Shown: positions 1 through 19,514 of the stretch, one piece after another
Layout of the letters: each line of letters begins with the position of its first letter
How positions within the stretch are numbered: the first letter of the stretch is position 1
Origin: a virus
Lineage: Duplodnaviria > Heunggongvirae > Uroviricota > Caudoviricetes
Reading direction: 5' to 3' (one strand)
Length of the DNA: 19,514 nt
Virus record (IMG/VR): IMGVR_UViG_2585427793_000004
Coordinates: 1-19,514 of that record
Notes under the pieces: generated by a model
Told to the model about the DNA's origin: nothing
The model's database searches: none
The model's input: only the letters and a program-made list of their open reading frames with translations
Position numbers and translations under genes: made by a program

Positions 1-357
1 ATCAGCGGCTTCCTGCAAAATCCTGATAGCTTTTTTAACGCCATGCTGAACGGCTGCATCGAACACAAACATCGCCACGCCATCAGGCCACTGGTCACAT
101 CCGGCAGGCAGCCAGTAATCGCGCCAGTAAATCTGCGCGACCTGTTCGCGGGTTAAATCCCTGATGCGGGTATCCGGTTTACCGTCGCCGCTGACATCGG
201 TTTTGCCGTCAATCACACCGTCGCGGCGGTCAGAAATGCCGTATTTGGTTTCACCGCCGCTGTCTGTGGGGTCATTGACATAGCCGCCTTCGATATCGGG
301 ACGCAGAATAAAATTCAGCGCATGTTCAAAGGCCGGGGAGAATTTTTGATTTTCCAT
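1..357 (-). CDS. GH108-type lysozyme / peptidoglycan hydrolase, N-terminal part (3' end outside window); probable endolysin of the Mu-like phage
   Basis: Minus-strand ATG at 357, open to the window edge (119 codons, no stop). Translation MENQKFSPAFEHALNFILRPDIEGGYVNDPTDSGGETKYGISDRR... carries the EGGYVNDP-x-D-x-GGETKYGI signature I recognise as the glycoside hydrolase family 108 N-terminal domain. Not in the supplied ORF track because it has no in-window stop. Confidence 0.6.
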   Translation of the reverse strand, partial: MENQKFSPAFEHALNFILRPDIEGGYVNDPTDSGGETKYGISDRRDGVIDGKTDVSGDGKPDTRIRDLTREQVAQIYWRDYWLPAGCDQWPDGVAMFVFDAAVQHGVKKAIRILQEAAD

Positions 358-369
358 AAAAGCACCTGT

Positions 370-396
370 GAAGCAGATTTAAACGTGGTCTGCTTC
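370..396 (-). promoter_or_regulatory. Perfect 8-bp inverted repeat upstream of the lysozyme gene
   Basis: GAAGCAGA-N11-TCTGCTTC, 13 bp upstream of the ATG at 357 and just downstream (minus-strand sense) of the terminator at 411-437. Function not determinable from sequence. Confidence 0.3.
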
Positions 397-410
397 ATGG
401 TGCCGGAGGC

Positions 411-437
411 ATAAAAAAAGCCGGATTTACCGGCTTC
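411..437 (-). terminator. Rho-independent terminator ending the early/middle transcript
   Basis: Minus-strand RNA reads AAGCCGG-UAAAU-CCGGCUU followed by a run of 7 U; lies ~25 nt 3' of the stop of CDS 459-956. Confidence 0.7.
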
Positions 438-458: not shown

Positions 459-956
459 TCAGTTAACTTTACGGGCAGAACATGTAGTCTTCATTACTGA
501 ACGTTCAATTTTTATCTTCCAGCCATTTACTGTTTTTTCGACAGGATCATCTTCCGTCTGCTTTAAATTATCCACATACATAAAATTCAGCGGGGATGGA
601 GTATCATCGTCCCATGATGTCGGGCGAACATAATCAGGGACAACAAAAGGTTCAAAAACAGTTTCACATAAAGCAGACGTCATTTGAGCAAAGTCGTCGC
701 TATCGGGACGAACCGGTCCTGTAACATACTGCATTTTTATGTTGATTTCGTTATCTCGCACAGACGTCTTTAAATCCTGATATACACCTAAGTTAAATCC
801 TTTAAACTCAGCAATGGCAGCATCACCTTTACCGTACCAGTCGGTATAGTCAACGGATGTTTTTTTCTGAAAAACATCTTTGACTTTTTGCTGGAATGTA
901 TCCGCCGCTTGTACAGTAGTAACAGTTAGTAAAAGAATAAGGGGAAGATATTTCAT
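459..956 (-). CDS. Secreted (Sec signal peptide) hypothetical protein, 165 aa; candidate moron
   Basis: ATG at 956 with AAGGA RBS, ATGA overlap with the mor stop. N-terminus MKYLPLILLLTVTTVQA-AD is a typical signal peptide with AxA cleavage site. Region is visibly more AT-rich than neighbours, roughly 35-40 percent GC by eye. Confidence 0.7.
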   Translation of the reverse strand: MKYLPLILLLTVTTVQAADTFQQKVKDVFQKKTSVDYTDWYGKGDAAIAEFKGFNLGVYQDLKTSVRDNEINIKMQYVTGPVRPDSDDFAQMTSALCETVFEPFVVPDYVRPTSWDDDTPSPLNFMYVDNLKQTEDDPVEKTVNGWKIKIERSVMKTTCSARKVN

Positions 957-1354
957 TGTTCGTCCTTAAATAGTTGCATTTGATATTTTCCACGCTCCAG
1001 TCGACGCATTCTTTTGATGGCCTGATATACCGTTTTGTATGTCACTTTGTAACGCTGCACCAGCTCCGCTACGTTTTTCCCATCAAAATCACGCCAGATG
1101 CGCATGTCTCTGATAAGATTTTCCAGTATTTTCCCTTTCGGGACATATACCTGAATCCCACCGATATGATTGCAAATCGCCACTACCAGCTCAAGAGAGT
1201 GGGCAGGGTTAACTCCAAGCCTTATCAGCTCCTGTCGCAACAGAGCATTCAGCTCAGCCAGTAAAGATGGAAATCCCGACTTTTCCTGAACATCATCAAA
1301 ATATTCAAGGATACTGTCGTCCTGATAATCACCAAATAAATCCTGCTCTTTCAT
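953..1354 (-). CDS. mor: Mor/C-family transcriptional activator (Mu middle operon regulator-like)
   Basis: 133 aa; ATG at 1354 with GGGAGA RBS and ATGA overlap with the upstream gene. Sequence ...LFGDYQDDSILEYF...FPSLLAELNALLRQELIRLGVNPAHSLELVVAICNHIGGIQVYVP...TVYQAIKRMRR matches my recollection of Mu Mor. Position right after gemA matches Mu gene order. Confidence 0.8.
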   Translation of the reverse strand: MKEQDLFGDYQDDSILEYFDDVQEKSGFPSLLAELNALLRQELIRLGVNPAHSLELVVAICNHIGGIQVYVPKGKILENLIRDMRIWRDFDGKNVAELVQRYKVTYKTVYQAIKRMRRLERGKYQMQLFKDEQ

Positions 1355-1902
1355 AGAACTATTCTCCCGCTGTTTCTGGCGCGGGCATACGCACTGGTCA
1401 GTGCATCATATCCACGCAGTTCCCGCCCGGTTTCGCTCACAGGTAAAGGCACACCATGTCGGGCAAAAGCTTCCCGAATGCAGCGCATATGCCACTGTTT
1501 GAGCGTTTCGAGCACAATCTGCAACGATTCCCCATAACACCAGGTCAGCGTGGAAACCCCCTGACCACCATTACGTCTGGCCGTCAGGCGTTCAACGTAT
1601 TTGTCCAGCGCGGCGTCGCTGATATCGGAGACGAAACCATCAAGAAACATCTGCTGCCAGATTTTATAAATCTTCTCGCGCGGTGTGACATACCCCTTAA
1701 AGCGACGGCGGGGATGTTTTTTCTGCTTCTTAAAACCGCGCTCTTTCATGGCATTGAGCACCTGTTCCAGTTGTGTAACGGACAGCTCGCGGCAACTGGT
1801 CTTGCCCGTGCACTGCACCAGAAAGGCGCGGTAAGTGTCATCGTCGAGGTGCAACTCCCGGCGGGCAACATGAATTAATTTAATCAGGGATGTGCGGCTC
1901 AT
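1351..1902 (-). CDS. gemA: GemA-like protein (Mu gp16 / DUF1018 family)
   Basis: 183 aa; ATG at 1902 with GGGGGA RBS. N-terminus MSRTSLIKLIHVARRELHLDDDTYRAFLVQCTGKTSCRELS is the conserved GemA-type signature; sits immediately upstream of mor as in Mu. Confidence 0.7.
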   Translation of the reverse strand: MSRTSLIKLIHVARRELHLDDDTYRAFLVQCTGKTSCRELSVTQLEQVLNAMKERGFKKQKKHPRRRFKGYVTPREKIYKIWQQMFLDGFVSDISDAALDKYVERLTARRNGGQGVSTLTWCYGESLQIVLETLKQWHMRCIREAFARHGVPLPVSETGRELRGYDALTSAYARARNSGRIVL

Positions 1903-2215
1903 TATGTCCCCCGGATTTAAAAATTAATTCAGTGTTGAATAGCTCTTTACTCATTCGCTGTAGCACATCAAGGGCGGCAACTGCCGCCACTTTATCCTGG
2001 CTGGCAATGATTCCCCGCAACTCTTCGATAATCCATGCAGGACTTAATGATTCAGCAATCATCATGCGCTTTTCTGAAATTAAATTTTCTCTGGCCTGCT
2101 CAAAGTGCTGGTATACAACATTATCCAGAAAATAATTTACATCTTGTTCTGACATACCACTGGAAATTAAGGTTGCAGCCATTAAATCAGCATCAGTAAT
2201 CATCTGTATTTTCAT
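1880..2215 (-). CDS. Hypothetical early protein, 111 aa
   Basis: Track ORF 1880-2248 trimmed to the ATG at 2215, which has an AGAGG RBS (MKIQMITDADLMAATLISSG...). Same strand and tight packing with flanking early genes. Confidence 0.5.
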   Translation of the reverse strand: MKIQMITDADLMAATLISSGMSEQDVNYFLDNVVYQHFEQARENLISEKRMMIAESLSPAWIIEELRGIIASQDKVAAVAALDVLQRMSKELFNTELIFKSGGHNEPHIPD

Positions 2216-2390
2216 TTCGTAATACCTCTTCGCAATAAAAGATTTCACCGGGATAACGTTTTTGTATGCGCTCCATCACCTGCATACATGCCTGCTCTGT
2301 GGGCCAGATTTTTTCTGTTACCGGGATAGCATCACAGGCATCATTCCCGCAGGTGCCAACCAGCAGGACAAAGCCAATTGACTTAATCAT
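2193..2390 (-). CDS. Small Cys-rich hypothetical protein, 65 aa, with hydrophobic N-terminus
   Basis: Track ORF 2193-2486 trimmed to the ATG at 2390 (MIKSIGFVLLVGTCGND...), which overlaps the stop of the upstream gene in ATGA-like fashion. Six cysteines. The longer track start lies inside the upstream CDS. Confidence 0.4.
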   Translation of the reverse strand: MIKSIGFVLLVGTCGNDACDAIPVTEKIWPTEQACMQVMERIQKRYPGEIFYCEEVLRNENTDDY

Positions 2391-2922
2391 GCTCACTGGC
2401 TTCCTGTGTTGCCGCCGGAACCGGTGAATAATCAAGAATGAGATAGCGCATGACGTGGTCGGTGATATTCCAGCCACTGGAGCCACAAATAAAACGTCCC
2501 AGCCGGATATCGATATACGCCATCACAAAACGGGGCATTCCCTGTTTGCACATTTCATCGCCCACTTCTGCAACGATGTAAACCGACTCGCAGGTCAGTA
2601 CGCCTGTCGCAAATTCTTTTGCCAGTGCCGGAATGGCATTGCCTTCCAGCCAGGGCAAAGAGCGGCGGAACGCACACCATTGAGCATCATCAACAGCGGG
2701 GTGCTCCGTTGTGTTTCGTCTTACCGGCGGCGTCGGGCGAGGGCGCGGAACATCATAAAACCCGTTGCATTCTGTCAGCATTCCGGCATCAACCGCATCA
2801 CGCAGGAAATACACCATTGAAGAAGGTGGCATATTCATTTTTTCCGCCAGAACGCCACAGGTCAGACGTCCGTAAGCCCGTAATAATGTACTGACACCGT
2901 TCAGAACTTTTGCATCAACCAT
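2383..2922 (-). CDS. Hypothetical early protein, 179 aa, possible winged-helix N-terminus
   Basis: ATG at 2922 with AGGA RBS; Pro-rich linker PRPRPTPPVRR between two halves. No family recognised. Confidence 0.55.
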   Translation of the reverse strand: MVDAKVLNGVSTLLRAYGRLTCGVLAEKMNMPPSSMVYFLRDAVDAGMLTECNGFYDVPRPRPTPPVRRNTTEHPAVDDAQWCAFRRSLPWLEGNAIPALAKEFATGVLTCESVYIVAEVGDEMCKQGMPRFVMAYIDIRLGRFICGSSGWNITDHVMRYLILDYSPVPAATQEASEHD

Positions 2923-3020
2923 TTTTTATTCCTGAGTAATCTGTTTCAGGCGCGAGCAATCCCCTGACGCATCGCGCCATAATTAAAAGAAAGTGAATTA
3001 ATTAAATATTCGTGGTGGTA

Positions 3021-8159: not shown

Positions 8160-8310
8160 GATTCCACTATCCTAAAAAGTTATCCGTGCGGATAACCGCG
8201 CGGTTATCCACTCGGACAAAGAATAAGAACACAAAAAGAACTTGTCAAATGTTCTTTTGTGTTTTTTATGTGTCTGCACTTTTTGTCTTTTAATTCAATT
8301 GGATAAGCAA
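8160..8310. promoter_or_regulatory. Divergent early/repressor promoter-operator region
   Basis: 151-bp gap between the divergent ner and repressor genes. Three alternating GTTATCC half-sites at 8179-8209 (GTTATCCG-TG-CGGATAAC-CGCGCG-GTTATCC), plus an imperfect palindrome CACAAAAAGAAC-N9-GTTCTTTTGTG at 8230-8261. Confidence 0.6.
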
Positions 8311-9249: not shown

Positions 9250-9627
9250 AATAAACTCCTTCTCAATAAGCAGGGTGCCACCGGCATAAACAATCTCGCC
9301 CCCCTGCGGATCCGGCATCCATCCAAGCAGGGCTTTCCAGAGTTCTCTCCGGACATCATGAACGGCGTCATAGGCTGCCCACTGCCCTTTTTCATCACGC
9401 TCATTGCTGAGCACAACAATCACGGAGAAGCCTTCTGTCAAATCCTGCCAGTAATCGGTCTGTGATTTTTGTTCCCCCGGTGCATCGTCAGAGGGAACCA
9501 CATAGGCAGCAGGCAGTCGCAGTTTTCCGGCATCAGGGATCGCCTTAAACTGCGCCGCGCCACCAACACGATCCTCAAAACGCGGGCATCGCTCACGCAA
9601 CGCCGCAATTATCGTTGTCAGTTTCAT
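9247..9627 (-). CDS. Phage neck / tail-terminator-like hypothetical protein, 126 aa, possibly 3'-truncated by the Mu-like insertion
   Basis: ATG at 9627 overlapping the stop of the upstream gene. Its TGA stop (9247-9249) falls inside the first bases of the putative Mu-like end, so the native C-terminus may be replaced. Family assignment is a guess from position after a gp10-like gene. Confidence 0.55.
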   Translation of the reverse strand: MKLTTIIAALRERCPRFEDRVGGAAQFKAIPDAGKLRLPAAYVVPSDDAPGEQKSQTDYWQDLTEGFSVIVVLSNERDEKGQWAAYDAVHDVRRELWKALLGWMPDPQGGEIVYAGGTLLIEKEFI

Positions 9628-10148
9628 TTATGCTTCCTTTTTACCGGACGTAACGAACGCTGCAGCTCACGGGACAACAGTTCCTGCGTCCAGTGACGCC
9701 GCCGCTCAATAACGTCAGCCATAAAGTTATTACGCGGGGCCAGCCGGAAAGTCGAAGAATGGTGCTTCTTCTGCCGCTTATCCTTTTTGTCCATTCCATA
9801 CGCTGAATGGCGAACGCCGTAATACAGAAATGCCGGATAATAGGATGCGCCTTCATGGAAACGGCGATTCCCCTGCCCGTTTTTCTGGTTAGGAGAAATT
9901 TTCACCATCAGTCCGGGGCGACGCGTCGTTTTTTTGGGAACGTAATAACCGATGGAGCGGGCCAGACGCCCGGTCTGATATCCCGGATTCTCTCCCGGAC
10001 CGGAACGCCCGCGTTTAATCACCAGACGTCTGGCGTCGCGCATATAGACGCGCCCGATCTGCACAAATGCCCGCCGCAGACGGGCACGATTAAACTCCAG
10101 CTCCTTTGGTTGTTTAAAGTCGACGTGTAAAAATGCTGTCTGATTCAT
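9624..10148 (-). CDS. HK97 gp10-family head-tail joining protein
   Basis: Track ORF 9624-10187 trimmed to the ATG at 10148 with GGGGTGA RBS (MNQTAFLHVDFKQPKELEFNRARL...). Motif RGRSGPGENPGYQTGRLARSIGYYV resembles the conserved PG...TGRLRRSI signature of the HK97 gp10 family. Confidence 0.65.
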   Translation of the reverse strand: MNQTAFLHVDFKQPKELEFNRARLRRAFVQIGRVYMRDARRLVIKRGRSGPGENPGYQTGRLARSIGYYVPKKTTRRPGLMVKISPNQKNGQGNRRFHEGASYYPAFLYYGVRHSAYGMDKKDKRQKKHHSSTFRLAPRNNFMADVIERRRHWTQELLSRELQRSLRPVKRKHK

Positions 10149-10530
10149 GGCATTCACCCCATCGTCGCGCTGTACGCAGTTCCTCACATTCCAGTAATAA
10201 AAAACGTCGCTGACCGTTCAGGTCGCGTATTCGCCGGATCCGGTACTCCTGACCGTAATAAACCACCTCATGATCTGCCGTGATGCCGTGACGGAAACGG
10301 ATTGTAAAATAATGCGTAACGACATTTTCTGTCTGCACTGAGCCCTGATAAGCGGCAGCGCCTGGCTGAGCCACCTTTGCCCAGACATCAAACGACTCCG
10401 GATACGTTGGCTCCGTACCAAAATCAGCGGTGGGTTCATCCACCCGAAGGCGGATCTTTATCCGGCGATTCAGCTCTCCGGGATCCGGTAAAAGGTAAGT
10501 GGCACTGGTCTGACTTTGCCTGATTTTCAT
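10114..10530 (-). CDS. Head-tail adaptor / head closure protein
   Basis: Track ORF 10114-10563 trimmed to the ATG at 10530 (ATGA overlap with the connector stop). ...PGELNRRIKIRL...WAKV...YRIRRIRDLNGQRRFLLLECEEL is the typical head-tail adaptor signature. Confidence 0.7.
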   Translation of the reverse strand: MKIRQSQTSATYLLPDPGELNRRIKIRLRVDEPTADFGTEPTYPESFDVWAKVAQPGAAAYQGSVQTENVVTHYFTIRFRHGITADHEVVYYGQEYRIRRIRDLNGQRRFLLLECEELRTARRWGECHESDSIFTRRL

Positions 10531-10850
10531 AGCGGGACAATCCTGTAAGGGCCAGCAAGCCATCTGAAACTCATTGGCGTTTCCAGTTTCTCCACATCGG
10601 TGATCGTTGAGCGATTTTCATAAAAATGACTGACCAGCATCAGCATTGCCAGACGAACGTCATCAGTCAGATGCATCCCGTCAGGATCGTCTTCCGGAAT
10701 CGTCTCTTCCGGTGCATACAACTTCCTGTTCAGGTATGTCTCTGTTCTTTTCTGTACCGCCTGTGCCAGCAATTTCAGAAAATCGCCGTCACTGTACAAA
10801 CCATCATCGAGCCGGAGGTGAGATTTAATTTCCTCTTCTTTCAGGAGCAT
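10527..10850 (-). CDS. gp6-like head-tail connector protein
   Basis: The supplied track lists this ORF as +, but the translation MLLKEEEIKSHLRLDDG... is only obtained from the reverse complement: ATG at 10848-10850, strong AGGAGG RBS, TGA at 10527-10529. N-terminal ...EEIKSHLRLD... is the usual gp6-type connector start. Confidence 0.75.
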   Translation of the reverse strand: MLLKEEEIKSHLRLDDGLYSDGDFLKLLAQAVQKRTETYLNRKLYAPEETIPEDDPDGMHLTDDVRLAMLMLVSHFYENRSTITDVEKLETPMSFRWLAGPYRIVPL

Positions 10851-10861
10851 ATTTTCCTCCT

Positions 10862-10883
10862 GTGCCCGCCATTACGCGGGCAC
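10862..10883 (-). other. GC-rich stem-loop between major capsid and connector genes
   Basis: Perfect inverted repeat GTGCCCGC-cattac-GCGGGCAC, between the MCP stop (10896) and the connector RBS. On the - strand the U-run precedes rather than follows the stem, so not a canonical terminator. Confidence 0.4.
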
Positions 10884-10895
10884 AAAAAAACCGCA

Positions 10896-12122
10896 TTACG
10901 CAGTGGCTTTCTGGCGGGTTGCAGCCCCAATTTTCATCAGCTTAATCGCCTGAGAATCCACCAGCATACCGCCGGTTCGCTTGGTGGTATAAAAACCCAC
11001 AAACGGTTTGTTGGTGTACGGATCGCGCAGGATACGGGTACCGATGCGATCAACGATGGTATAGCCACGTTTGAAGTTACCAAACGCAATGGCTTTTGCA
11101 TCGGCGGCAATATCCGGCATCTGCTCATTCTCAACGATGCCATACCCTGCCAGAGAAGAAGGCTGACCCAGCTCAATACCCGGACGCCACAGATAATTTC
11201 CGTCGTTATCCTTCAGCAGACGAATGGCAAACAGGCTGCTGTTGTTCATCATGAACTTCGCGCCGCTGCGGTGCGCCTTACGCAGGGTGTAAATCAGTTT
11301 AATGATCGCATCAGCGGTCACGCCGGAAGCCGCACCGGAAGCGATATGCTGAAGTTTGCCAAACTTACGGGTTTTGTCATCTTCATCGGTGGACTCATAA
11401 GCCAGAAAACCTTTTGGTTTTTTGCTGCCGTCGCCACTGGTAAAGGCCATTTCTTCCTGTTCGGCAAATTCCAGCGCCAGCTCACTGTTGATCCAGTCTT
11501 CCACATTGAAGAAAGCGTCATCGAGCATTTTCTGGGTGGCCTGCGGGTTGCCGTAGATTTCCCCCATAAAGGGTTCAATCAGCCCCAGTTTTGAGGTGGC
11601 GGTTTCCGGACGCGTATCCGTTTCCCCCACCCATCCGGACTTAGTGCCGCCCAGATTCACCAGTTTTTTATAATCCGAGCCACCGAGGGTGATCACGGTG
11701 GCTTCCTGGCGCATCACCACCTCATCTTTCAGCAGCGTCAGGATGGTACGATCCAGTTCTTCCGGAATGGCATAACCACCATCTTCATCATTGCCCACCT
11801 GAAGCGCCTTACGTTCAAGTTCACGCAGACCGTCTTCACGCCCCTTGCGCATAAATCCGATAAACGCTTCTTTGTGTTCACCGGCAACTTTATTTTTCGT
11901 GCCGCCTGCCGGACGCTTAACTTCAGCCAGCTCAGCCTCAAGATCGCTTTTCAGGTTTTCCAGCTCGCTGATTTGCCCGTTCAGGCTTTCCACCTGTTCG
12001 GCCAGCTTGCTTTTTTCCTGTTCGATCGCGTCAATGCGCTTGTCGTTTTTTGCCTTAAAATCGTCAAACTTCTGCTGCAAATCCTGCGCGACCTGTTCAA
12101 CGTCTTTAATATCAACAGCCAT
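10896..12122 (-). CDS. Major capsid protein, HK97 fold, with N-terminal scaffolding-like delta domain
   Basis: 408 aa; ATG at 12122 with AGGAG RBS. N-terminal ~100 aa are coiled-coil-like (KLAEQVESLNGQISELENLKSDLEAELAEVK), followed by a capsid domain, as in HK97 gp5-type proteins. Confidence 0.9.
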   Translation of the reverse strand: MAVDIKDVEQVAQDLQQKFDDFKAKNDKRIDAIEQEKSKLAEQVESLNGQISELENLKSDLEAELAEVKRPAGGTKNKVAGEHKEAFIGFMRKGREDGLRELERKALQVGNDEDGGYAIPEELDRTILTLLKDEVVMRQEATVITLGGSDYKKLVNLGGTKSGWVGETDTRPETATSKLGLIEPFMGEIYGNPQATQKMLDDAFFNVEDWINSELALEFAEQEEMAFTSGDGSKKPKGFLAYESTDEDDKTRKFGKLQHIASGAASGVTADAIIKLIYTLRKAHRSGAKFMMNNSSLFAIRLLKDNDGNYLWRPGIELGQPSSLAGYGIVENEQMPDIAADAKAIAFGNFKRGYTIVDRIGTRILRDPYTNKPFVGFYTTKRTGGMLVDSQAIKLMKIGAATRQKATA

Positions 12123-12135
12123 TATTTACTCCTGG

Positions 12136-12786
12136 TTAAAATTTAAGATTTTTCAGTGCATTCAGTGCGACATCCACATCCTCAGCATCACGCAGGGATA
12201 AAGCGCCATATCCCCCGGCCATGAATGCTTTGGCCTGGGTTCGCGAGAGTCCAACATCGCGCAGGACTCGCTCAATAATTTTCTGATCAGGGATCTCCCC
12301 ACGCGCCAGCGCATTTTTCACATCGCTGATGCGTGCTTCATCATTGGAAGGAAACGTCACCAGACTGACCTCCCACAGGTCGATCTCTTTCAGCAGGAAT
12401 ACCCCTTTTTCCCGGTCGTACTCCCAGTCTTTCAGGATGTAGCCAACAGAAAGGCCGGTTAAAGAACCGGCCTTCATATGGGCGTGTGCACGTTTTGCCA
12501 GGGGATCATCATCAACGAGTAATCGCCCCCTGACATAAAGCCCGACATCATCTTCTTTCATTTCGGTGTACACACCGATGGGCTCATCCATGCGGTGCTG
12601 CCAGAGCAACGCAGGCAGCGCCTTTTTTTCGCTCCATTTCTGGAGTGTTGTGGTAAAGGCACCGGGGACCACCACATCATCGTGGCTGTCCTTTACACCA
12701 AAGACGGAGCCATACCCTTCAAACTCACCGGAGTCACTGACAGATTTCAGACTCAGCGGTACATCAAGACGTTGTTTCGTCTGCAT
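12136..12786 (-). CDS. Prohead maturation protease (HK97 family, S78-like)
   Basis: Track ORF 12136-12822 trimmed to the ATG at 12786 with AAGGA RBS (MQTKQRLDVPLSLKSVSDSGEFEGYGSVFGVKDSHDDVV...). Lies between portal and capsid genes. Confidence 0.8.
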   Translation of the reverse strand: MQTKQRLDVPLSLKSVSDSGEFEGYGSVFGVKDSHDDVVVPGAFTTTLQKWSEKKALPALLWQHRMDEPIGVYTEMKEDDVGLYVRGRLLVDDDPLAKRAHAHMKAGSLTGLSVGYILKDWEYDREKGVFLLKEIDLWEVSLVTFPSNDEARISDVKNALARGEIPDQKIIERVLRDVGLSRTQAKAFMAGGYGALSLRDAEDVDVALNALKNLKF

Positions 12787-14005
12787 TGGCGTTATCCTTC
12801 TGCTTACCGGCTTTACTGCCATCGGAGGGTTTCGTGGTCATGTTCATCGGTGTGAGATAGACATCACCACCGGGACGCGGATTCATATCTTCCAGGTCGC
12901 GGCAGTCATTGGGAGAGTAAATTCTCCAGTTGATCCCCGTGGCGTAGGCTTCAAAACGGGATTTCATATCCCCGCGCAGTAACGCCCCGGCGTTAAATTT
13001 GGCGTAAAACTTCCCCTGTTTGCTCTCCCTGACCAGCCCTGTATTGATCCGTTGTTCAATACGGGTCAGATACGGCACAAGGGAATAGTTGATAAATCCG
13101 AGCCCCAGCTCTTCAATATTGTTGAAAGTGGCGCGATCGGTGTTCTGCACCATGTGCAGCGGCACGCGGAAAAGACGACAGATTTCTTCCAGCTGAAACT
13201 TGCGGGTTTCCAGGAACTGGCTGTCCTCGGCGTTCAGTGCCACCGGCTTCCAGTCCAGCCCCATTTCCAGAATCATCGGACGGTGCGCATTACCCAGCCC
13301 AAGATGCCGCTCCTCAAAATCCCTCTTCATGCGCTCATAAGCATCCGGCGTGAGCTTTTGTTCCGTACGCAACACACCGGATGTCACAGCACCGTTACCA
13401 AACAGCCTGGCGCCGTGCTCCTCGGTTGCCGCTGCCAGTGAAATGGCCTCGCGCGCATATGCAATGGGATTCAGACCGACAAGTCCATCCAGCGTCAGGG
13501 TGCGCACATGCCAGATTTCATCCTGGGTCAACACATCCACGGAGCCATCCGGAAACGTCACCTGATAAACCGGCTGCCACTGGCTGTTCAGCTTCGGCTC
13601 CACACAGCCCGGATCTATCGGAAGAAGCTCCACTACTTCCCCCAGCGCCTTCACCTTGTAGGCGTAAAAATTCCCCCGCAGACACAGGCAGACAATAACC
13701 AGCTCCCAGAATTCCTGCGGCGTCATGTAGCCATTGGGTTTTGCTGAAATCAGCTTATGCAGCCGTTCATCCACCGCCCGTGTTTTAAGGGTGCCGCTGA
13801 TTTTGTAGAGACTGCAGGGCAGCATACCAACAGACTCAGCCAGCACCCTGACGCAGGAATACACCGCCGTCAGCCGCATGGCCCGCTGGCTGCTGATCCG
13901 CTTTCCGGTATAGGTGTCGTATGACAACCCCAGCTCTTCCGCAAGCATCCCGGGCGTTGTGACGGGGGTGTTATTTTTACGTTGAAAAAGCCCCTGGAAA
14001 AACAT
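12764..14005 (-). CDS. Portal protein (HK97 family)
   Basis: 413 aa; ATG at 14005 with GGAGGTGA RBS. Size and position between large terminase and protease are canonical. Confidence 0.85.
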   Translation of the reverse strand: MFFQGLFQRKNNTPVTTPGMLAEELGLSYDTYTGKRISSQRAMRLTAVYSCVRVLAESVGMLPCSLYKISGTLKTRAVDERLHKLISAKPNGYMTPQEFWELVIVCLCLRGNFYAYKVKALGEVVELLPIDPGCVEPKLNSQWQPVYQVTFPDGSVDVLTQDEIWHVRTLTLDGLVGLNPIAYAREAISLAAATEEHGARLFGNGAVTSGVLRTEQKLTPDAYERMKRDFEERHLGLGNAHRPMILEMGLDWKPVALNAEDSQFLETRKFQLEEICRLFRVPLHMVQNTDRATFNNIEELGLGFINYSLVPYLTRIEQRINTGLVRESKQGKFYAKFNAGALLRGDMKSRFEAYATGINWRIYSPNDCRDLEDMNPRPGGDVYLTPMNMTTKPSDGSKAGKQKDNANADETTS

Positions 14006-14187
14006 TACTCACCTCCGGAGGCGACCCGGTGACCACGATCGAGATAACGCGCAACCAGCCACGACCAGCACAGACACAGCCCCCCGGCAACAACAAAACC
14101 CGCCGGGGGATAAATCAGCCAGGCGCCATACGCCAGCAAAAGCACACCCAGCACGCCCACCAGAGGCGTGAGAATTATCAGAAACAT
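14005..14187 (-). CDS. Small two-helix membrane protein, 60 aa, inserted between terminase and portal
   Basis: ATG at 14187 with GAGG RBS; stop overlaps the portal [52 protein letters not shown] has two hydrophobic helices. HK97-type modules normally have terminase and portal genes adjacent. Confidence 0.45.
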
Positions 14188-14198
14188 AATGACCTCGG

Positions 14199-15956
14199 TT
14201 AAAGCGAGCGAATACCAACGCTGACCAGATGTTCAGACAGATCCGGCTCCGGTTCACCGCCATTGACCAGCATCCGGCTCATTGCTGTAAACATCGCAAC
14301 AGGGCCGTCGATTTTGGCTTCCGGCGTGGATTTATTCGGGAAGATATTGTCGTTTTTGTCCGGTTTTACCGTAACGTTAGACATCATCCAGTTCATGACC
14401 GGATGATTGCTGTGGTGGAAACGCCCGGCATAGACCAGTGATTCCGTTTCCTTCATGGCCTCTGACAGATTGCGGACCGTCTGCGGAACTTCCACCAGCG
14501 GTATACCTTCTTCAGTCAGCGCCAGACTGAACTGCATTGCGCTCCACGGGTCAAATCCCAGTTCCCTCAGGTTTTCACCGCCAATCCATTCCAGTAGGTC
14601 ACTTTTGATCTGAGCATGATCGATAACATCACCATCCGTCAGGATGAGCTTACCCATCTCCGCCCACTTCCGGTAAAGTTCTGCCTGCTGCCGTGAGCAT
14701 CGTTCCAGCCGTCCTTCCGGAAGCCAGAATTTAAAATCGGCATGAACATGCCCGTTATCCGTTCGCCAGAGTTTTGCCGCCGCACAGATATCAATCTTAT
14801 GAGCAAGGTCGACGCCGACCCACATGGGATATGTTTTCAGCTCATGCTGTGGAGCAATGTATTCGCACTTCTCCCACTTAATCATGTCCATCCAGGCAGA
14901 CTCTGCTGTTACCCACACATTCATGTGTTTGGTAAAAAAATTCACCCGCGCAGAGACCTGTTCTTTCGCTTTTTTCGCCAGGCGACGCAGATCATCCCAG
15001 CGTTTACAGATGCCCAGGCCGGGATTCGCTTTCTGCCAGACCGTTTCATCAAACGGATCATCTCCCTCATCGAGGGTGTAAATAATCGCAAAGTAGGAGT
15101 CGTCTTTTACCGCGCCCTCCACGTCGCTGTTATAGCCTCGCAATACCTTGATGGCGTAATCGCGTTGCTCGTAACAAATCCCTTCCTTGTTAAAGCCAGC
15201 CGTGGTGATACCAAATAACAGGGACTGCAGACGGGCACCGGTTGCCGTTTCCAGAACGTCCCACACGTCGCGGGTTTTATGTGCATGCAGCTCATCAATA
15301 ATGGCGCAGTGGATGTTCAGACCATCCAGGTTGTTTGCATCCGAGGAAAGCGGTTCAAATTTTGATGCGCTCTGCTCCTGGTAAATCGCCAGCTTGTTGA
15401 AATCAAACAACCGCCCGAGTGTCGATCGGGCTTTTCTGACCATATTTTTGGCGTCTTCAAACACGATTCTGGCCTGGTCACGCGTGGTTGCGGCTGAATA
15501 CACCTCAGCCCCGCCTTCACCATCTGCCCCCGTCATATACAGACCGATACCTGATGACAGGGTTGATTTTGCGTTTTTACGGGCGACTTCGTTGTACGCT
15601 GTCCGGAAACGGCGCACCATCACCGGGCGTCCGCTGCCATCGCTGCGCATGACAACTTCCCCGGTCTCTTCATTCACCAGCGGAATGACAAAACCAAAAA
15701 TATTAATGAGGATAAAAACATGCCAGTCCATCAGTTCAATGGGCTGACCTGCCAGCGCCCCTTTTACATGGGGCACAAATTTGTAGAAATTCAGGATGTG
15801 CTGCGCACGGGGTTCACTGAAATAAATCCCCCGCTCTTCGCCGTACTTCAGATCATCAAGAAAACGCTGGCAGGCCAGACGGACAAATTCACCAGCGACA
15901 ATTTCTCCTGCAACAACACGTTCGGCGTAGCGGATCCCGTCAGCCACTTTTGCCAT
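14199..15956 (-). CDS. Terminase large subunit
   Basis: 585 aa; ATG at 15956, ATGA overlap with the small-subunit stop. Size and placement between small terminase and portal. Confidence 0.9.
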
Positions 15957-16438
15957 CAGTCTCTCGCTTTTAAAAGTTCTGCCAGCGGATCAACATCATC
16001 CGGTCCGGCGATATTTACTTTCGCCCGGCTTGCCGGTGACATACCAAATTCTGCAAGCATCGCCCGGATCCGCTTCCAGGCATCCGCTTTCATCGCAGCA
16101 GCCGGGTGTGCCTTAATCAGCACATCACCGTTCTGCGTTTCCGTGCGGTAGGTATAACCCTCAACATCGAGTGTTTCGCAGTGATGCCGGTATTCGGTGT
16201 AGGCTTCCACCAGCAACTCGAGTGCACGCGCATCAAGCTGAGAAATGATCCCTTCCGCATTCAGCTCTTCCGCCATTCGCCTGAACCAGTACTTTCCCTG
16301 CGCCCCTAAATGCTGCGGAATTTTAGGGAGACCTTTTTCGTCCTTTTTAGCGGTTTTTTTGGCGTCTTTAACGGGACGCTTTGAGGGATTGCCTCGTATC
16401 AAATGCAGGCGTGGCGGGGGTTTCGGGGGGCCTGACAT
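15956..16438 (-). CDS. Terminase small subunit (P27-family-like)
   Basis: 160 aa; basic, Lys/Pro-rich N-terminus (MSGPPKPPPRLHLIRGNPSKRPVKDAKK) then a helical domain; directly upstream of the large subunit. Confidence 0.75.
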   Translation of the reverse strand: MSGPPKPPPRLHLIRGNPSKRPVKDAKKTAKKDEKGLPKIPQHLGAQGKYWFRRMAEELNAEGIISQLDARALELLVEAYTEYRHHCETLDVEGYTYRTETQNGDVLIKAHPAAAMKADAWKRIRAMLAEFGMSPASRAKVNIAGPDDVDPLAELLKARD

Positions 16439-16585
16439 AATCGATTTTACCTATCAATCGTTTGATCGCATTCCCAAAAAAAAGTTTTCGAACCTGCGGC
16501 GATGCGAGGAAGGGTTGGCGGGCGGTCCCGGACAGCCAGGGCTGCAGGGATTTGCCCCGCCCCTCCCTACAAGTGAGAATAATTA
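16439..16585. other. Candidate cos / packaging-site region
   Basis: 147-bp non-coding, GC-rich gap between HNH and small terminase genes, where HK97-like phages place cos. Contains GGTTGGCGGGCGGTCCCGG, loosely reminiscent of lambda cosN. Speculative. Confidence 0.3.
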
Positions 16586-16936
16586 TCACCTGATTCGTTC
16601 GCGCGCTGTTTTCGCTTTATGGCAGGGCCAGCACAGACTCTGCAGGTTGCTGTCTGCGTCTGTTCCGCCATGCGCTTTCGGGATGATGTGGTCGACGGTT
16701 TTCGCCTCGCTCACCACACCGGCACGCAGACACAACTGACACAGACCTTTATCGCGCTTCAGAATACGGGCACGAATCACCGTCCATTTTGAGCCATAGC
16801 CACGCTGGTGGCGGCTCAGTCCGCGCTGGTGCTGCACCCAGCCTTCACCACGATGTTTATCACAGTAGCCAGAGCTGTCTGTTGTTGTGCCTGCGCAGCC
16901 TCGCTTACGACAGGCGCGGGGGATCCGTGATGGCAT
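16586..16936 (-). CDS. HNH endonuclease (terminase-associated)
   Basis: Track ORF 16586-17005 starts at a GTG; the ATG at 16936 has a strong AAGGAG RBS (MPSRIPRACRKRGCAGT...). Cys pairs CxxC...CxxC and the H-x-x-P-x-x-x-G-G motif (DHIIPKAHGGTD...CWPCH) are typical HNH; placement before the terminase is classical for HK97-like phages. Confidence 0.8.
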   Translation of the reverse strand: MPSRIPRACRKRGCAGTTTDSSGYCDKHRGEGWVQHQRGLSRHQRGYGSKWTVIRARILKRDKGLCQLCLRAGVVSEAKTVDHIIPKAHGGTDADSNLQSLCWPCHKAKTARERIR

Positions 16937-16997
16937 TGGAATCTCCTTAATACCGACATTATCGCAGCCCCTCACTGAAGAGCTGCTGTAATGCCTG

Positions 16998-17126
16998 TTA
17001 CTCACGAATCAATCGAGCATGTTGACCGCTCATTTCAACATGTTGACCGCTCATTTCAATGCGTAAGTATTGTGGCTTGCCGTCAATCAACGCGGTGATT
17101 AACTTATCACCTGTAGGTTTCCACAT
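16998..17126 (-). CDS. Small ORF, 42 aa, containing a 21-bp in-frame tandem duplication
   Basis: ATG at 17126 with AGGAGA RBS; translation MWKPTGDKLITALIDGKPQYLRIEMSGQHVEMSGQHARLIRE; TAA at 16998-17000. Below the track's 60-aa cutoff. Coding status uncertain. Confidence 0.3.
   Translation of the reverse strand: MWKPTGDKLITALIDGKPQYLRIEMSGQHVEMSGQHARLIRE
17018..17059. repeat. Perfect 21-bp direct tandem duplication (2 copies)
   Basis: CATGTTGACCGCTCATTTCAA at 17018-17038 and again at 17039-17059, with no mismatches. Confidence 0.95.
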
Positions 17127-17299
17127 AATTTTCTCCTGTTTTAATGCCCCTTGCCGCCGGGCAGTTGATCAAAGTTCATCTTGATTCGGCAAGATTTAGA
17201 ATGAATAAGATAAAATTGGCACACGCAGCAGAATTTCATGCTTTCCGGACGCTGACGCACCCTTCATTTTTCAGCAAAATATTCTGCTCTTACAGGCGA

Positions 17300-17482
17300 T
17301 CAGTTCTGCAGACACTGCCGAACACCGTCGACAATTTCACAGACCTGAGACGCGGTATCGAAAAGCTGGCGCGCCTTATCCAGGCTGACGCACCCCACCA
17401 ATAAAAAAGGCACCAGTATCGCTACCAGTGCCCGTTTCACCGCCGTTCGCGGCATTCTGTGTGTCCAGTGTTTTCGCGCCAT
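17300..17482 (-). CDS. Small putative lipoprotein, 60 aa
   Basis: MARKHWTHRMPRTAVKRALVAILVPFLLVGCVSLDK...: hydrophobic signal segment ending in a lipobox-like LLVGC; mature part ~30 aa with 3 Cys. Not proline-rich, so not a typical o-spanin. Confidence 0.45.
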   Translation of the reverse strand: MARKHWTHRMPRTAVKRALVAILVPFLLVGCVSLDKARQLFDTASQVCEIVDGVRQCLQN

Positions 17483-17486
17483 ATCA

Positions 17487-17597
17487 CCACCAACGCACAG
17501 CCCAAATCAGAACAGCGACCGCCACAAGGCGAATTGCAAAGGCCGCAGCCCTTGTCAAATCAAGGCTCGCGGGAGTTTCCATTTCAATACCTTTCAT
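17487..17597 (-). CDS. Mini membrane protein, 36 aa
   Basis: ATG at 17597 with GAGG RBS; MKGIEMETPASLDLTRAAAFAIRLVAVAVLIWAVRWW; its stop sits 5 nt before the ATG of the lipoprotein gene. Below the track cutoff. Confidence 0.3.
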
Positions 17598-17685
17598 AAT
17601 GGACAACCTCAAAAAGAATCTTTTATACTTTCCCACGAGGATTTTCTCCCTACTCACTAATCACAATTTCCCCTTTGACGTGAAA

Positions 17686-17728
17686 ACTAAAAACCCCGGA
17701 CTGTTCCCCCAGCCGGGGTTTTGTTTTA
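17686..17728 (-). terminator. Rho-independent terminator after the endolysin gene (bidirectional in appearance)
   Basis: AAAACCCCGG-N13-CCGGGGTTTT with T/A runs on both sides; on the - strand the stem is followed by UUUUUAGUUUU and begins right after the endolysin stop at 17730. Confidence 0.7.
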
Positions 17729-17729
17729 C

Positions 17730-18107
17730 TTATCGCTTCAGCTGAAAGTGAGGTCCGTCTTTCAGCGTTTTCCAGTCCCCGCCCCATTCGATAGCGATCC
17801 CCAGCTCTGCGGCAGCCTGCTTAAATGCCTGTGCGATTTTCTCGTACAGAGGCCACTCCCATGACACCTGACTGCCAATGTAGGCCACAACATCCACCGC
17901 ATCACCGGTCAGGTGGCGGCTGTTCATGGTCTGGCTTTTCCCTTCCGCAACCAGCTGTTTCTGGCGATACTTACTGCGCAGGCCTTCCGTAATACCGAAA
18001 TCAACCTCCGTCAGCTCCAGCGCACGGCGAACTACAGCAACCAGCTGTGGTTTGACACCCTCCAGATTTTTTTCACTGCGACGGCTGAATCTGAATTTAC
18101 CCGGCAT
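17730..18107 (-). CDS. Endolysin, peptidase M15-like (L-alanyl-D-glutamate peptidase type)
   Basis: Track ORF starts at a GTG (18113); the ATG at 18107 follows a GAGG RBS (MPGKFRFSRRSEKNLEG...). Zinc-site-like pattern SRHLTGDAVD ... DGPHFQ (H-x-x-x-D ... H) typical of M15 phage endolysins. Confidence 0.75.
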   Translation of the reverse strand: MPGKFRFSRRSEKNLEGVKPQLVAVVRRALELTEVDFGITEGLRSKYRQKQLVAEGKSQTMNSRHLTGDAVDVVAYIGSQVSWEWPLYEKIAQAFKQAAAELGIAIEWGGDWKTLKDGPHFQLKR

Positions 18108-18109
18108 AT

Positions 18110-18385
18110 TCACCTCAACAATGGAAAGATTTTTGTGACGTTCCCGCGTGCGCGTATCACCAGCACGCAGAACAGCAGATTAAAAAACACTTCCAGCCAG
18201 CCCGTTGCTAACGGGCGACCACACAGATAGCTGAGGGGCGCAAAGGCATACAGCAGCATCAGCAGCCAGGCCAGCCATGACACCAGCGGTTTATGTCTGG
18301 AATCACGGCGACGATAAAAAAAGAGCGTCAGCACGATAACCGTGCATAACGCCACATTCAGCAATCCGGGAAGGTTACTTAACAT
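18110..18385 (-). CDS. Lysis-cassette membrane protein (holin or antiholin candidate), 91 aa
   Basis: Track ORF 18110-18439 trimmed to the ATG at 18385 with GGAGG RBS (MLSNLPGLLNVALCTVIVLTLFFYRRRDSRHKPLVSWLAWLLMLLYAF...). At least two hydrophobic helices; immediately upstream of the endolysin. Confidence 0.55.
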   Translation of the reverse strand: MLSNLPGLLNVALCTVIVLTLFFYRRRDSRHKPLVSWLAWLLMLLYAFAPLSYLCGRPLATGWLEVFFNLLFCVLVIRARGNVTKIFPLLR

Positions 18386-18767
18386 TGCCGCCTCCTCCAC
18401 CCCGCAGGCGGGAGAACACACCGGACACCAGCGATGCAATATCCTGCTGGTGGATGAACGAGAGAATCTTCACCGACACCACCGAGACCAGCACCGCGCA
18501 AAGCGCATCTGCTGATGTACCGTCATACCCTGTTTTTGATGCAATCCAGGCTGACAGCACACGCGCTCCCAGCACGCCGACAATAAACGACACCAGAAAA
18601 TGTGCCACCACGCGCCAGACTGAAAGTGACTGTGGCATCGTTGCCACAAATAACGCCCCGGCGAACGCGCCAAACACAATCCCGAAATCCATTCCGGTAA
18701 ACAGCCCGAATACCGTCGCGCCACCCAGCGCCGCAGCCGTGCCGGAACCGGATAAGGGTTCAGACAT
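18375..18767 (-). CDS. Holin-like membrane protein, 130 aa
   Basis: ATG at 18767 with strong AGGAGG RBS; Gly/Ala-rich hydrophobic helices (GLFTGMDFGIVFGAFAGALFVA..., VAHFLVSFIVGVLGARVL...); first gene of the lysis cluster. Confidence 0.6.
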   Translation of the reverse strand: MSEPLSGSGTAAALGGATVFGLFTGMDFGIVFGAFAGALFVATMPQSLSVWRVVAHFLVSFIVGVLGARVLSAWIASKTGYDGTSADALCAVLVSVVSVKILSFIHQQDIASLVSGVFSRLRGGGGGNVK

Positions 18768-18777
18768 ACTTCCTCCT

Positions 18778-18805
18778 GAAAATAAAAAAGGGCCACCAGC
18801 GACCC
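18778..18805 (-). terminator. Weak terminator-like hairpin immediately upstream of the holin RBS
   Basis: Minus-strand RNA GGGUCGCUGGUGGCCC (6-bp stem with two G-U pairs) followed by UUUUUUAUUUU, abutting the holin RBS. Confidence 0.35.
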
Positions 18806-18823
18806 GTAAAAAAACACCCCGTC

Positions 18824-18852
18824 AAAGGCATCCGCAGATGCCTTTTGTGTGA
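18824..18852 (+). terminator. Hairpin with U-tract, canonical in the + orientation
   Basis: AAAGGCATC-cgca-GATGCCTTT followed by TGTGTGATGTTATT on the + strand; on the - strand the same stem is followed by GACGGGGUGUUUUUUU. Confidence 0.4.
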
Positions 18853-18854
18853 TG

Positions 18855-19007
18855 TTATTCAGATTTACGCAGTAAAGGCCGGAGCACGACCAGCGCCATC
18901 ACCACCAGCACACCATCTGCCAGCACCGACATCAGTCGTCCGGTGAAATCAACCACCACTACCAGAAACAACAGGATGACAGCCAGCACAAGGCGCGCAC
19001 TTTTCAC
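18855..19007 (-). CDS. Small hydrophobic peptide, 50 aa from a GTG start (25 aa from the internal ATG)
   Basis: GTG at 19007 preceded by GGAG, overlapping the TerB-like stop. (V)KSARLVLAVILLFLVVVVDFTGRLMSVLADGVLVVMALVVLRPLLRKSE is two hydrophobic helices. Not in the track (under 60 aa). Coding status uncertain. Confidence 0.3.
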   Translation of the reverse strand: MKSARLVLAVILLFLVVVVDFTGRLMSVLADGVLVVMALVVLRPLLRKSE

Positions 19008-19429
19008 AGGTACTGCTCCAGCGGCAACTGCAGCGCCTGCGCAATTTTCTTCAGTTGCGCTTCTTCTTCCTGAGCGATACCGTCCTGGTCAGCGATATCC
19101 AGACACAGGCACAGCACATTAACTGCATCATCAGTACCGGCAACATCAGCCAGCTGACGAAGAGCTTCGGCATTGGCAGAACGCGGCGACGCTTCATAAC
19201 GGGCGCGGATATTTGCACTCATTTGTGCAATCTCACCGGAGAACGGCGCAAAGGCAGGAAGTGCTGCAATGGTTTTTTCCAGTACCGCGATTTCTTTCGC
19301 GTCACAGGTGCCGTCAGCGTATGCAATGGAGTACGCGCCCCAGACGGTCGCCTCCACTGCGTCACGGTTCTCCATCTTCTTCACTTCGGTAATGGCCTTG
19401 CGGGTTTTCTTTTTGAAAATACCAAACAT
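19004..19429 (-). CDS. TerB-like domain protein (tellurite-resistance TerB / DjlA-N-like fold), 141 aa
   Basis: ATG at 19429 with AAAAGGAAAAG RBS. Amphipathic helical protein with acidic C-terminal half (LCLCLDIADQDGIAQEEEAQLKKIAQ) that resembles TerB-family proteins; family call is from pattern memory only. Confidence 0.55.
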   Translation of the reverse strand: MFGIFKKKTRKAITEVKKMENRDAVEATVWGAYSIAYADGTCDAKEIAVLEKTIAALPAFAPFSGEIAQMSANIRARYEASPRSANAEALRQLADVAGTDDAVNVLCLCLDIADQDGIAQEEEAQLKKIAQALQLPLEQYL

Positions 19430-19514
19430 CGTGACTTTTCCTTTTAGTGGGTGAGCCTGCGCCCGGGGGTGACCAGCCCACAGAGAAAGTCACACTGACC
19501 ATCCCGTAAGCTCA

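Follow-up and report, generated by a model that had tools for sequence, protein, structure and literature searches.

A low-GC gene for a predicted exported protein as accessory cargo between mor and the endolysin operon of Mu-like phages

Which role a small secreted protein could play when it is encoded last in the early operon of a transposable phage is the question raised by positions 459 to 956 of IMG/VR record IMGVR_UViG_2585427793_000004 (the window, i.e., the whole stretch of 19,514 nt that was analysed). A previous, sequence-only reading had regarded the 165-aa product of this gene, here ORF165, as accessory cargo and as a candidate moron acting in lysogenic conversion or exclusion. The window carries the left part of a Mu-like prophage, with the repressor gene, ner, the transposase gene A, B, gam, gemA, mor, ORF165 and lys. 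The features surrounding the gene are the following:

1 to 357, minus strand: 5' part of lys, a GH108 endolysin gene and the first of the next operon (Pfam PF05838, E = 3.4e-25)
358 to 412, minus strand: putative Mor-dependent promoter core and lys 5' UTR (constant dyad-lys spacing; -10 and +1 inferred only)
362 to 366, minus strand: lys Shine-Dalgarno sequence AGGTG, from the sequence
413 to 437, minus strand: hairpin GAAGCCGG-TAAAT-CCGGCTTT followed by a run of 7 T, with an 8-bp stem and a 5-nt loop (dyad core 420-434); downstream anchor of the variable slot
459 to 956, minus strand: ORF165, coding sequence of a 165-aa protein predicted to be exported (ATG start at 954-956, stop codon at 459-461)
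953 to 956, minus strand: ATGA overlap of the mor stop and the ORF165 start, read from the sequence as translational coupling
963 to 967, minus strand: ORF165 Shine-Dalgarno sequence AAGGA, within mor and 6 nt upstream of the ATG
953 to 1354, minus strand: mor, for a Mor/C-family transcription activator; upstream anchor of the slot (Pfam PF08765, E = 6.6e-30)
1351 to 1902, minus strand: gemA (gp16 family), first gene of the gemA-mor-ORF165 block (Pfam PF06252, E = 6.7e-31)

The Mu-like prophage ends at ~9268, where the inward reading starts TGAGAAGG. Positions 9269-19514 belong to a different, HK97-like prophage, which encodes a capsid protein (10896-12122), a prohead protease (12136-12822), a portal protein (12764-14005) and TerL (14199-15956), and whose tail-terminator gene lies at the 9268/9269 junction; the transposable phage was therefore inserted into another prophage.

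The overlap with the mor stop and the low GC content that had been noted for ORF165 were both confirmed. Its GC content is 39.2% (GC3 32.5%); the corresponding values are 43.5% (mor), 53.4% (gemA), 53.5% (lys) and 50.3% (window). ORF165 is not the sole AT-rich early gene, as a 122-aa ORF just upstream of gemA (1880-2248, minus strand) has a GC content of 39.6%. The gam-gemA region (~1900-3000) differs in gene content between two annotated E. coli prophages (L001 and L002), and constitutes another variable early region. Among E. coli alleles of ORF165 the dN/dS ratio is 0.16-0.20 (about 0.18), comparable to those of gemA and lys; by this measure the family is under purifying selection, and the gene-wide ratio gives no sign of positive selection or of an arms race. 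Because of this ratio, and because its motifs are kept in homologues down to ~20% identity, ORF165 is judged to be a real gene and more than a chance reading frame.

ORF165 DNA was found in 9 of 5426 complete E. coli genomes, always adjoining mor, while 37 further genomes of this set have the same backbone flanks without it; no copies were found on plasmids. The order gemA-mor-X-lys, X being the ORF165 homologue, occurs in all 18 phage loci that carry such a homologue (17 from IMG/VR, and Vibrio phage 1.028.O), and it is kept where Mor is only ~31% and Lys ~40% identical to the proteins of the window. Three bacterial-genome loci with a homologue show the gemA/mor context too, and two loci (L019 and L020) have an ORF165 homologue and no GH108 lys. 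As judged from these neighbourhoods, the ORF165 family is confined to Mu-like phages and to the vicinity of gemA and mor. Two of the loci have peculiarities. In Yersinia sp. HM-2024 (L105, 2239-4379) the ORF165 homologue lies between gemA and mor, not after mor, and the hairpin between mor and lys is a different one, also GC-rich (ACCCGCTTCGGCGGGTTTTG). In the prophage of E. coli RM9088 (L102, 2360-2911) gemA has an internal stop and is listed as a pseudogene, and mor, the ORF165 allele and lys are intact.

The optional nature of ORF165 becomes apparent when related phages are compared. The mor-lys interval was examined in 80 phage loci fetched via Mor (44-100% identity), of which 78 were informative. 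It was found in four states, whose counts sum to 79 because one locus, L098, carries two cassettes:

phrog_38744, a second secreted family with two cysteines, 159-177 aa: 30 of 78 loci
phrog_36430, a membrane protein of ~107-111 aa with three hydrophobic segments: 22 of 78 loci
ORF165 family: 14 of 78 loci
empty slot, ~140 bp from mor to lys: 13 of 78 loci

By their sequences, all three cassette families are envelope-targeted, and in every case in which composition was computed (63/63) the cassette has 35-40% GC, compared to 51-52% for the rest of the locus. Where the slot is empty, the end of mor directly abuts the hairpin (13 loci). Most E. coli prophages of the type studied here carry phrog_38744 in the slot. 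Different cassettes, or none, are found on near-identical backbones (Mor 98-100% and Lys 89-98% identical), and each of the two alleles of the gene that follows lys is found with every slot state; on this comparison, the type of cassette is independent of the mor and lysis-gene alleles. A conserved core gene of all Mu-like phages was also considered and is ruled out by the empty slots and the unrelated cassettes; correspondingly, no homologue with a known morphogenetic or lysis function was found to be conserved at this position in all Mu-like phages. In a group of empty-slot phages (L029-L040; L029, 2840-2945) Mor carries a Pro/Arg-rich C-terminal extension of ~20 residues, FYHSPNLPHPVRRPPRRP, that reaches up to the hairpin.

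The borders of the cassette are visible in the alignment of the window with an E. coli prophage carrying phrog_38744. Identity extends through mor and the first ~9 codons of the following gene (MKY[L/F]PL...), is then lost, and returns at the DNA level ~8 nt before the hairpin, placing the 5' recombination junction within the signal-peptide stretch (906-956) and the 3' junction just upstream of the hairpin. Additionally, the locus with two cassettes (L098, 2492-4250) consists of mor, a phrog_38744 gene, a hairpin variant, GCCGGTTTTTCCGGC, in which the loop is altered, ~145 bp left over from the 3' end of mor, an ORF165-family gene, the hairpin and lys, a tandem that looks like the footprint of cassette exchange through conserved flanks. 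Taken on these comparisons, ORF165 is the payload of an exchangeable accessory cassette that lies exactly between the mor stop and the hairpin, so that its earlier description as accessory cargo holds. This architecture, together with the localisation discussed below, is the part of the explanation that we consider very likely.

The protein itself can be divided into two parts:

906 to 956, minus strand: coding part of the predicted signal peptide, aa 1-17, MKYLPLILLLTVTTVQA (n/h/c layout; pLDDT <50 for residues 1-18)
462 to 905, minus strand: coding part of the mature domain, 148 aa, 16.9 kDa, pI 4.8 (alpha-beta4-alpha-beta3 layout, from the AlphaFold model and the family alignment)

The Sec signal peptide proposed for ORF165 agrees with the sequence criteria for Sec export and cleavage by SPase I, applied as a heuristic judgement. 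The N-terminus, MKYLPLILLLTVTTVQA followed by AD, has one basic residue, a hydrophobic core of 12-13 residues and a V-Q-A cleavage motif, and its arrangement (MK-YLPLILLLTVTT-VQA, then AD) is free of a lipobox. The same layout is common to 19/19 aligned family members, each of which has exactly two Cys in its mature part. We infer that ORF165 leaves the cytoplasm via Sec and loses its signal peptide after VQA17. No hydrophobic segment or transmembrane domain is found in ORF165 beyond the signal peptide, and the mature protein probably stays in the periplasm as a soluble, acidic polypeptide of 16.9 kDa. Its two cysteines, C97 and C159, encoded at 666-668 and 480-482 (minus strand), are probably oxidised to a disulfide. 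In the AlphaFold model (pLDDT 82, pTM 0.76) the poorly modelled residues 1-18 are followed by a confident globular domain. Y41, K43, G44, C97, G145, W146 and C159 are invariant in the family, W40, D45, K63 and W115 are nearly invariant, and the conserved motifs are DWYxKGD, WDDD and NGW.

Relatives of this protein are few. A word-indexed search of 5.8 billion proteins returned six, and an exhaustive profile search of 1.84 billion cluster representatives returned 18 matches, two of which are repetitive artefacts, leaving about 16 clusters. The most remote homologues reach Vibrio phages, with ~20% identity at the lowest and the same motifs. ORF165 matches no family in Pfam, NCBIfam, PHROGs or PADLOC, a weak PHROG match to phrog_38744 (E = 0.24) covering residues 1-32 only, and a profile search of the PDB gave no match even at E ≤ 10; thus, the profile and structure-prediction searches suggested for this gene returned a confidently modelled domain and no known family or fold. 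A PADLOC match to ZorB/MotB (15 bits, E = 0.0029) covers the hydrophobic N-terminus only and was treated as spurious. As had been supposed, no Mu protein resembles ORF165: tblastn against 50,697 phage records gave only weak matches, to Vibrio Mu-like phages. No likeness in sequence or fold was found to the characterised superinfection-exclusion proteins (T4 Sp/Imm, P1 Sim, P22 SieA/B, Cor, Llp), and ORF165 shows neither the motifs nor the fold of the periplasmic lysozyme inhibitors (Ivy, PliC/MliC, PliG, PliI). Searching the literature by RefSeq accession WP_032084919 or by keywords returned nothing on the family.

The downstream border of the cassette is the hairpin, which lies 21 nt after the ORF165 stop. 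A 28-nt stretch, AATGAAGCCGGTAAATCCGGCTTTTTTT, is invariant across all slot states, the empty one included, while the surrounding DNA diverges, and in 77/78 loci the dyad AAGCCGG-T(A/T)AAT-CCGGCTT with its T-run precedes the lys ATG by 74-83 nt, with an invariant stem and variation of the loop base only. Because it is present in empty-slot phages and with all cassette types, the hairpin is, on this comparison, a backbone sequence and not part of the cassette. Thus, the strong terminator that had been attributed to ORF165 is there, 7-T run included, but it belongs to the backbone and also occurs where the slot is empty.

The hairpin also resembles the middle promoter (Pm) region of Mu. Its 15-nt core, GCCGGT(A/T)AATCCGGC, agrees with that of Mu and is present a single time in the window, and the longer stretch, GAAGCCGGTAAATCCGGCTTTTTTTATG, is nearly identical to AAAGCCGGTTAATCCGGCTTTTTTTACG, which lies directly after mor in Mu (L101, 1677-1705). 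The Mu annotation gives this region two roles, the Mor-activated middle promoter and a predicted terminator. The Mor-binding dyad of Mu Pm is located at -51 to -36, with its centre at -43.5 (PMC4287176, PMC4390567), and a published primer for the cloning of Pm starts at the Mu dyad sequence (PMC9239132). Because of this near-identity to the Mu Pm dyad/terminator, the hairpin is read as the terminator of the early operon and as the Mor operator (Mor box) of the lys-operon promoter, binding and initiation being deduced from the likeness. The two phages differ in what follows: in Mu, Pm drives gp18-gp19-gp20-C and C then activates Plys, whereas here the element precedes lys itself by 74-83 nt, and the annotation of the following 6 kb (L001) contains no second Mor/C gene. 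This arrangement points to a phage lineage in which Mor turns on the lysis/late operon directly, which would amount to a shorter cascade than that of Mu (early genes, Mor, lysis/late genes).

Upstream, the likely start of the transcript that includes ORF165 is distant:

8220 to 8248, minus strand: Pe-like sigma-70 promoter TTGACA-17-TATTCT between the repressor gene and ner (promoter scan; likely start of the early transcript)

A consensus scan found no sigma-70-like site at positions 250-1500, i.e., near ORF165, although atypical promoters could escape such a scan. The gemA region holds fewer promoter-like sites than shuffled sequence, and the sole one there, at 1689-1661, is weak. Because the Pe-like site is the only good promoter of the early region and no site lies near ORF165, the gene is likely the last cistron of a ~7.8-kb early transcript that runs from Pe through gemA-mor and ends at the hairpin. 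Since the Mor box directly precedes the lysis operon, appreciable expression of mor and ORF165 in a stable lysogen should be harmful and is deemed unlikely.

Because homology gives no assignment, the function of ORF165 has to be sought in its anatomy: the gene is optional, laterally shuffled and AT-rich, its product is predicted to be envelope-targeted, and it can be swapped with two other envelope proteins. From this analysis, our best guess, which is a tentative one, is that ORF165 is a periplasmic exclusion or entry-blocking factor. Being last in the early operon, it would be made early in lytic growth, exported by Sec, cleaved, and active in the periplasm, where it could block further phage entry, resulting in superinfection exclusion or in protection against re-adsorbing progeny. 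Its manner of action would be like that of T4 Spackle or P1 Sim, without relatedness to either, and the conserved aromatic/acidic patch formed by DWYxKGD, WDDD and NGW could be the binding surface. A precedent exists in a Pseudomonas Mu-like phage, where a gene of the early operon has exclusion activity (PMC9936078). Two observations count against such a factor. Temperate phages usually express their exclusion genes as prophages, but ORF165 appears tied to a repressed early operon; and, as far as sequence comparison goes, it has no likeness to known exclusion proteins and a dN/dS without the sign of an arms race.

The same anatomy would suit a factor that turns on the host envelope instead of on other phages. 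ORF165 could bind, inhibit or redirect a periplasmic component of the host, such as a peptidoglycan enzyme, a nuclease or protease, an envelope-stress sensor, or the pilus/conjugation machinery, in which case phage yield would be improved and other phages would be unaffected; we rate this as rather unlikely. A broader and equally speculative proposal concerns the slot as a whole. The stretch from mor to the Mor box would be, in Mu-like phages of enterobacteria and vibrios, a dedicated hot spot of diversity that shuffles at least three families of envelope effectors, and ORF165 would found a new class of periplasmic exclusion or anti-host-envelope proteins, with a fold unlike any solved one and deployed in the lytic phase instead of from the prophage.

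A separate question, compatible with any of the functional readings, is whether ORF165 and phrog_38744 are alternative cargoes or alleles of one ancient, hyper-divergent and fast-evolving slot gene that is quasi-core. The first ~9 codons and the signal peptide are common to both, their lengths are similar, two invariant Cys stand at matching positions, hhalign aligns them collinearly over 120 columns, and their predicted secondary structure elements come in the same order. However, hhalign assigns a probability of only 12% when the signal peptide is included and of 3.6% when it is left out, the HMM cross-searches are not significant, and the AlphaFold model of phrog_38744 has a pLDDT of only 57. 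Homology of the mature domains is not detectable by BLASTP, hhalign or HMM cross-search. The reading as one slot gene is rather unlikely also in view of the tandem of both genes in L098, and of the empty slots and the unrelated membrane-protein cassette found elsewhere.

The proximity of the endolysin gene brings in lysis timing. ORF165 is immediately upstream of the GH108 endolysin operon and is predicted to be periplasmic, as is the antiholin domain of T4 RI, and it might work with the adjoining lysis cassette as an antiholin-like or endolysin-modulating factor in the periplasm. This is unlikely on several counts: by sequence, a terminator separates ORF165 from the lysis operon and ORF165 is transcribed earlier; slot and lysis genes do not co-vary, both alleles downstream of lys occurring with ORF165, with phrog_38744 or with an empty slot; L019 and L020 retain the homologue in the absence of GH108 lys; the protein lacks a transmembrane domain past its signal peptide; and in Mu, gp19 and gp20, which occupy the equivalent interval, are dispensable for lysis (PMC9239132). 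A holin or antiholin proper was rejected as a candidate on account of the missing transmembrane domain, the position upstream of the terminator and the independence of the cassette type from the lysis alleles.

Lysogenic conversion, the first of the roles that had been put forward for ORF165, fares slightly worse and is improbable. Under this explanation the gene would be expressed from the prophage as a fitness factor, conferring, e.g., serum, stress or phage resistance, and an AT-rich, optional, secreted product is indeed the usual profile of a moron. Additionally, Mu annotation places a semi-early promoter upstream of gemA, and low-level Pe transcription with constitutive expression of the gem operon is described for Mu lysogens (Paolozzi and Ghelardini, 1992, as cited in PMC3820752). 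Against it, ORF165 has no promoter of its own and appears translationally coupled to mor, appreciable expression of mor and ORF165 in a lysogen should be harmful given the Mor box directly before the lysis operon, and the promoter-like site within gemA (1689-1661) is weak, in a region with fewer such sites than shuffled sequence. The term moron is suitable insofar as the gene is inserted between otherwise adjacent elements and deviates in composition, but it has neither its own promoter nor its own terminator.

Finally, that ORF165 is a spurious or non-functional frame, as its lack of a family or fold match, an E. coli allele that aligns over 497 nt instead of 498 (NZ_CP122923.1, 2618128-2618624) and a 130-aa truncated variant in the database (protein P0003) might be taken to indicate, is highly improbable given the dN/dS of about 0.18, the retention of both Cys and the motifs across genera at identities down to ~20%, the confident AlphaFold model (pLDDT 82), the good Shine-Dalgarno sequence and the translational coupling. 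The 497-nt allele and the 130-aa variant suggest occasional inactivation of ORF165 by frameshift, in keeping with its being dispensable.

Genes for exclusion, defence and anti-defence have been found time and again in the variable AT-rich slots of temperate phages. The slot between mor and the Mor box has sharp borders, three uncharacterised envelope families and natural empty controls on near-identical backbones, making comparative experiments easy. If ORF165 does block entry from the periplasm, it would add a new family and a new fold to the few soluble periplasmic exclusion factors.

Known systems resemble ORF165 in different respects. One is its alternative in the slot, phrog_38744, which shares with it the site, the first ~9 codons, the signal peptide, a similar size, two matching Cys and AT-richness, and differs in a mature domain that is not detectably homologous; this family is likewise uncharacterised. 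In Mu, gp19 and gp20 (and gp18) occupy the same mor-endolysin interval and are small, envelope-targeted and dispensable proteins of uncharacterised function. However, they have no sequence similarity to ORF165, and their genes follow the Mor box, as part of the Mor-activated middle operon with C, whereas ORF165 precedes the box, in the early operon. Moreover, gp19 and gp20 reside in the membrane, in contrast to the soluble, periplasmic product predicted for ORF165.

The morons of lambdoid phages (HK97/lambda; bor, lom) are similar in that extra DNA of deviant base composition, present as an optional gene for an envelope product, is found between genes that are adjacent in relatives. In its classic form, a moron stands alone as a transcription unit: it brings along its own promoter and terminator and is active in the lysogen. 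ORF165 lacks both of these elements and uses instead the transcription of the early operon and the terminator of the backbone. T4 Spackle (Sp) and P1 Sim are, as predicted for ORF165, small phage proteins exported by Sec to the periplasm, and Spackle, which has a disulfide, is produced in the early lytic phase. Collectively, ORF165 is new and uncharacterised and belongs with the known accessory envelope genes that phages carry in variable slots, its closest analogues being Mu gp18-gp20 by position, the lambdoid morons by concept, and Spackle and Sim by the mechanism proposed here.
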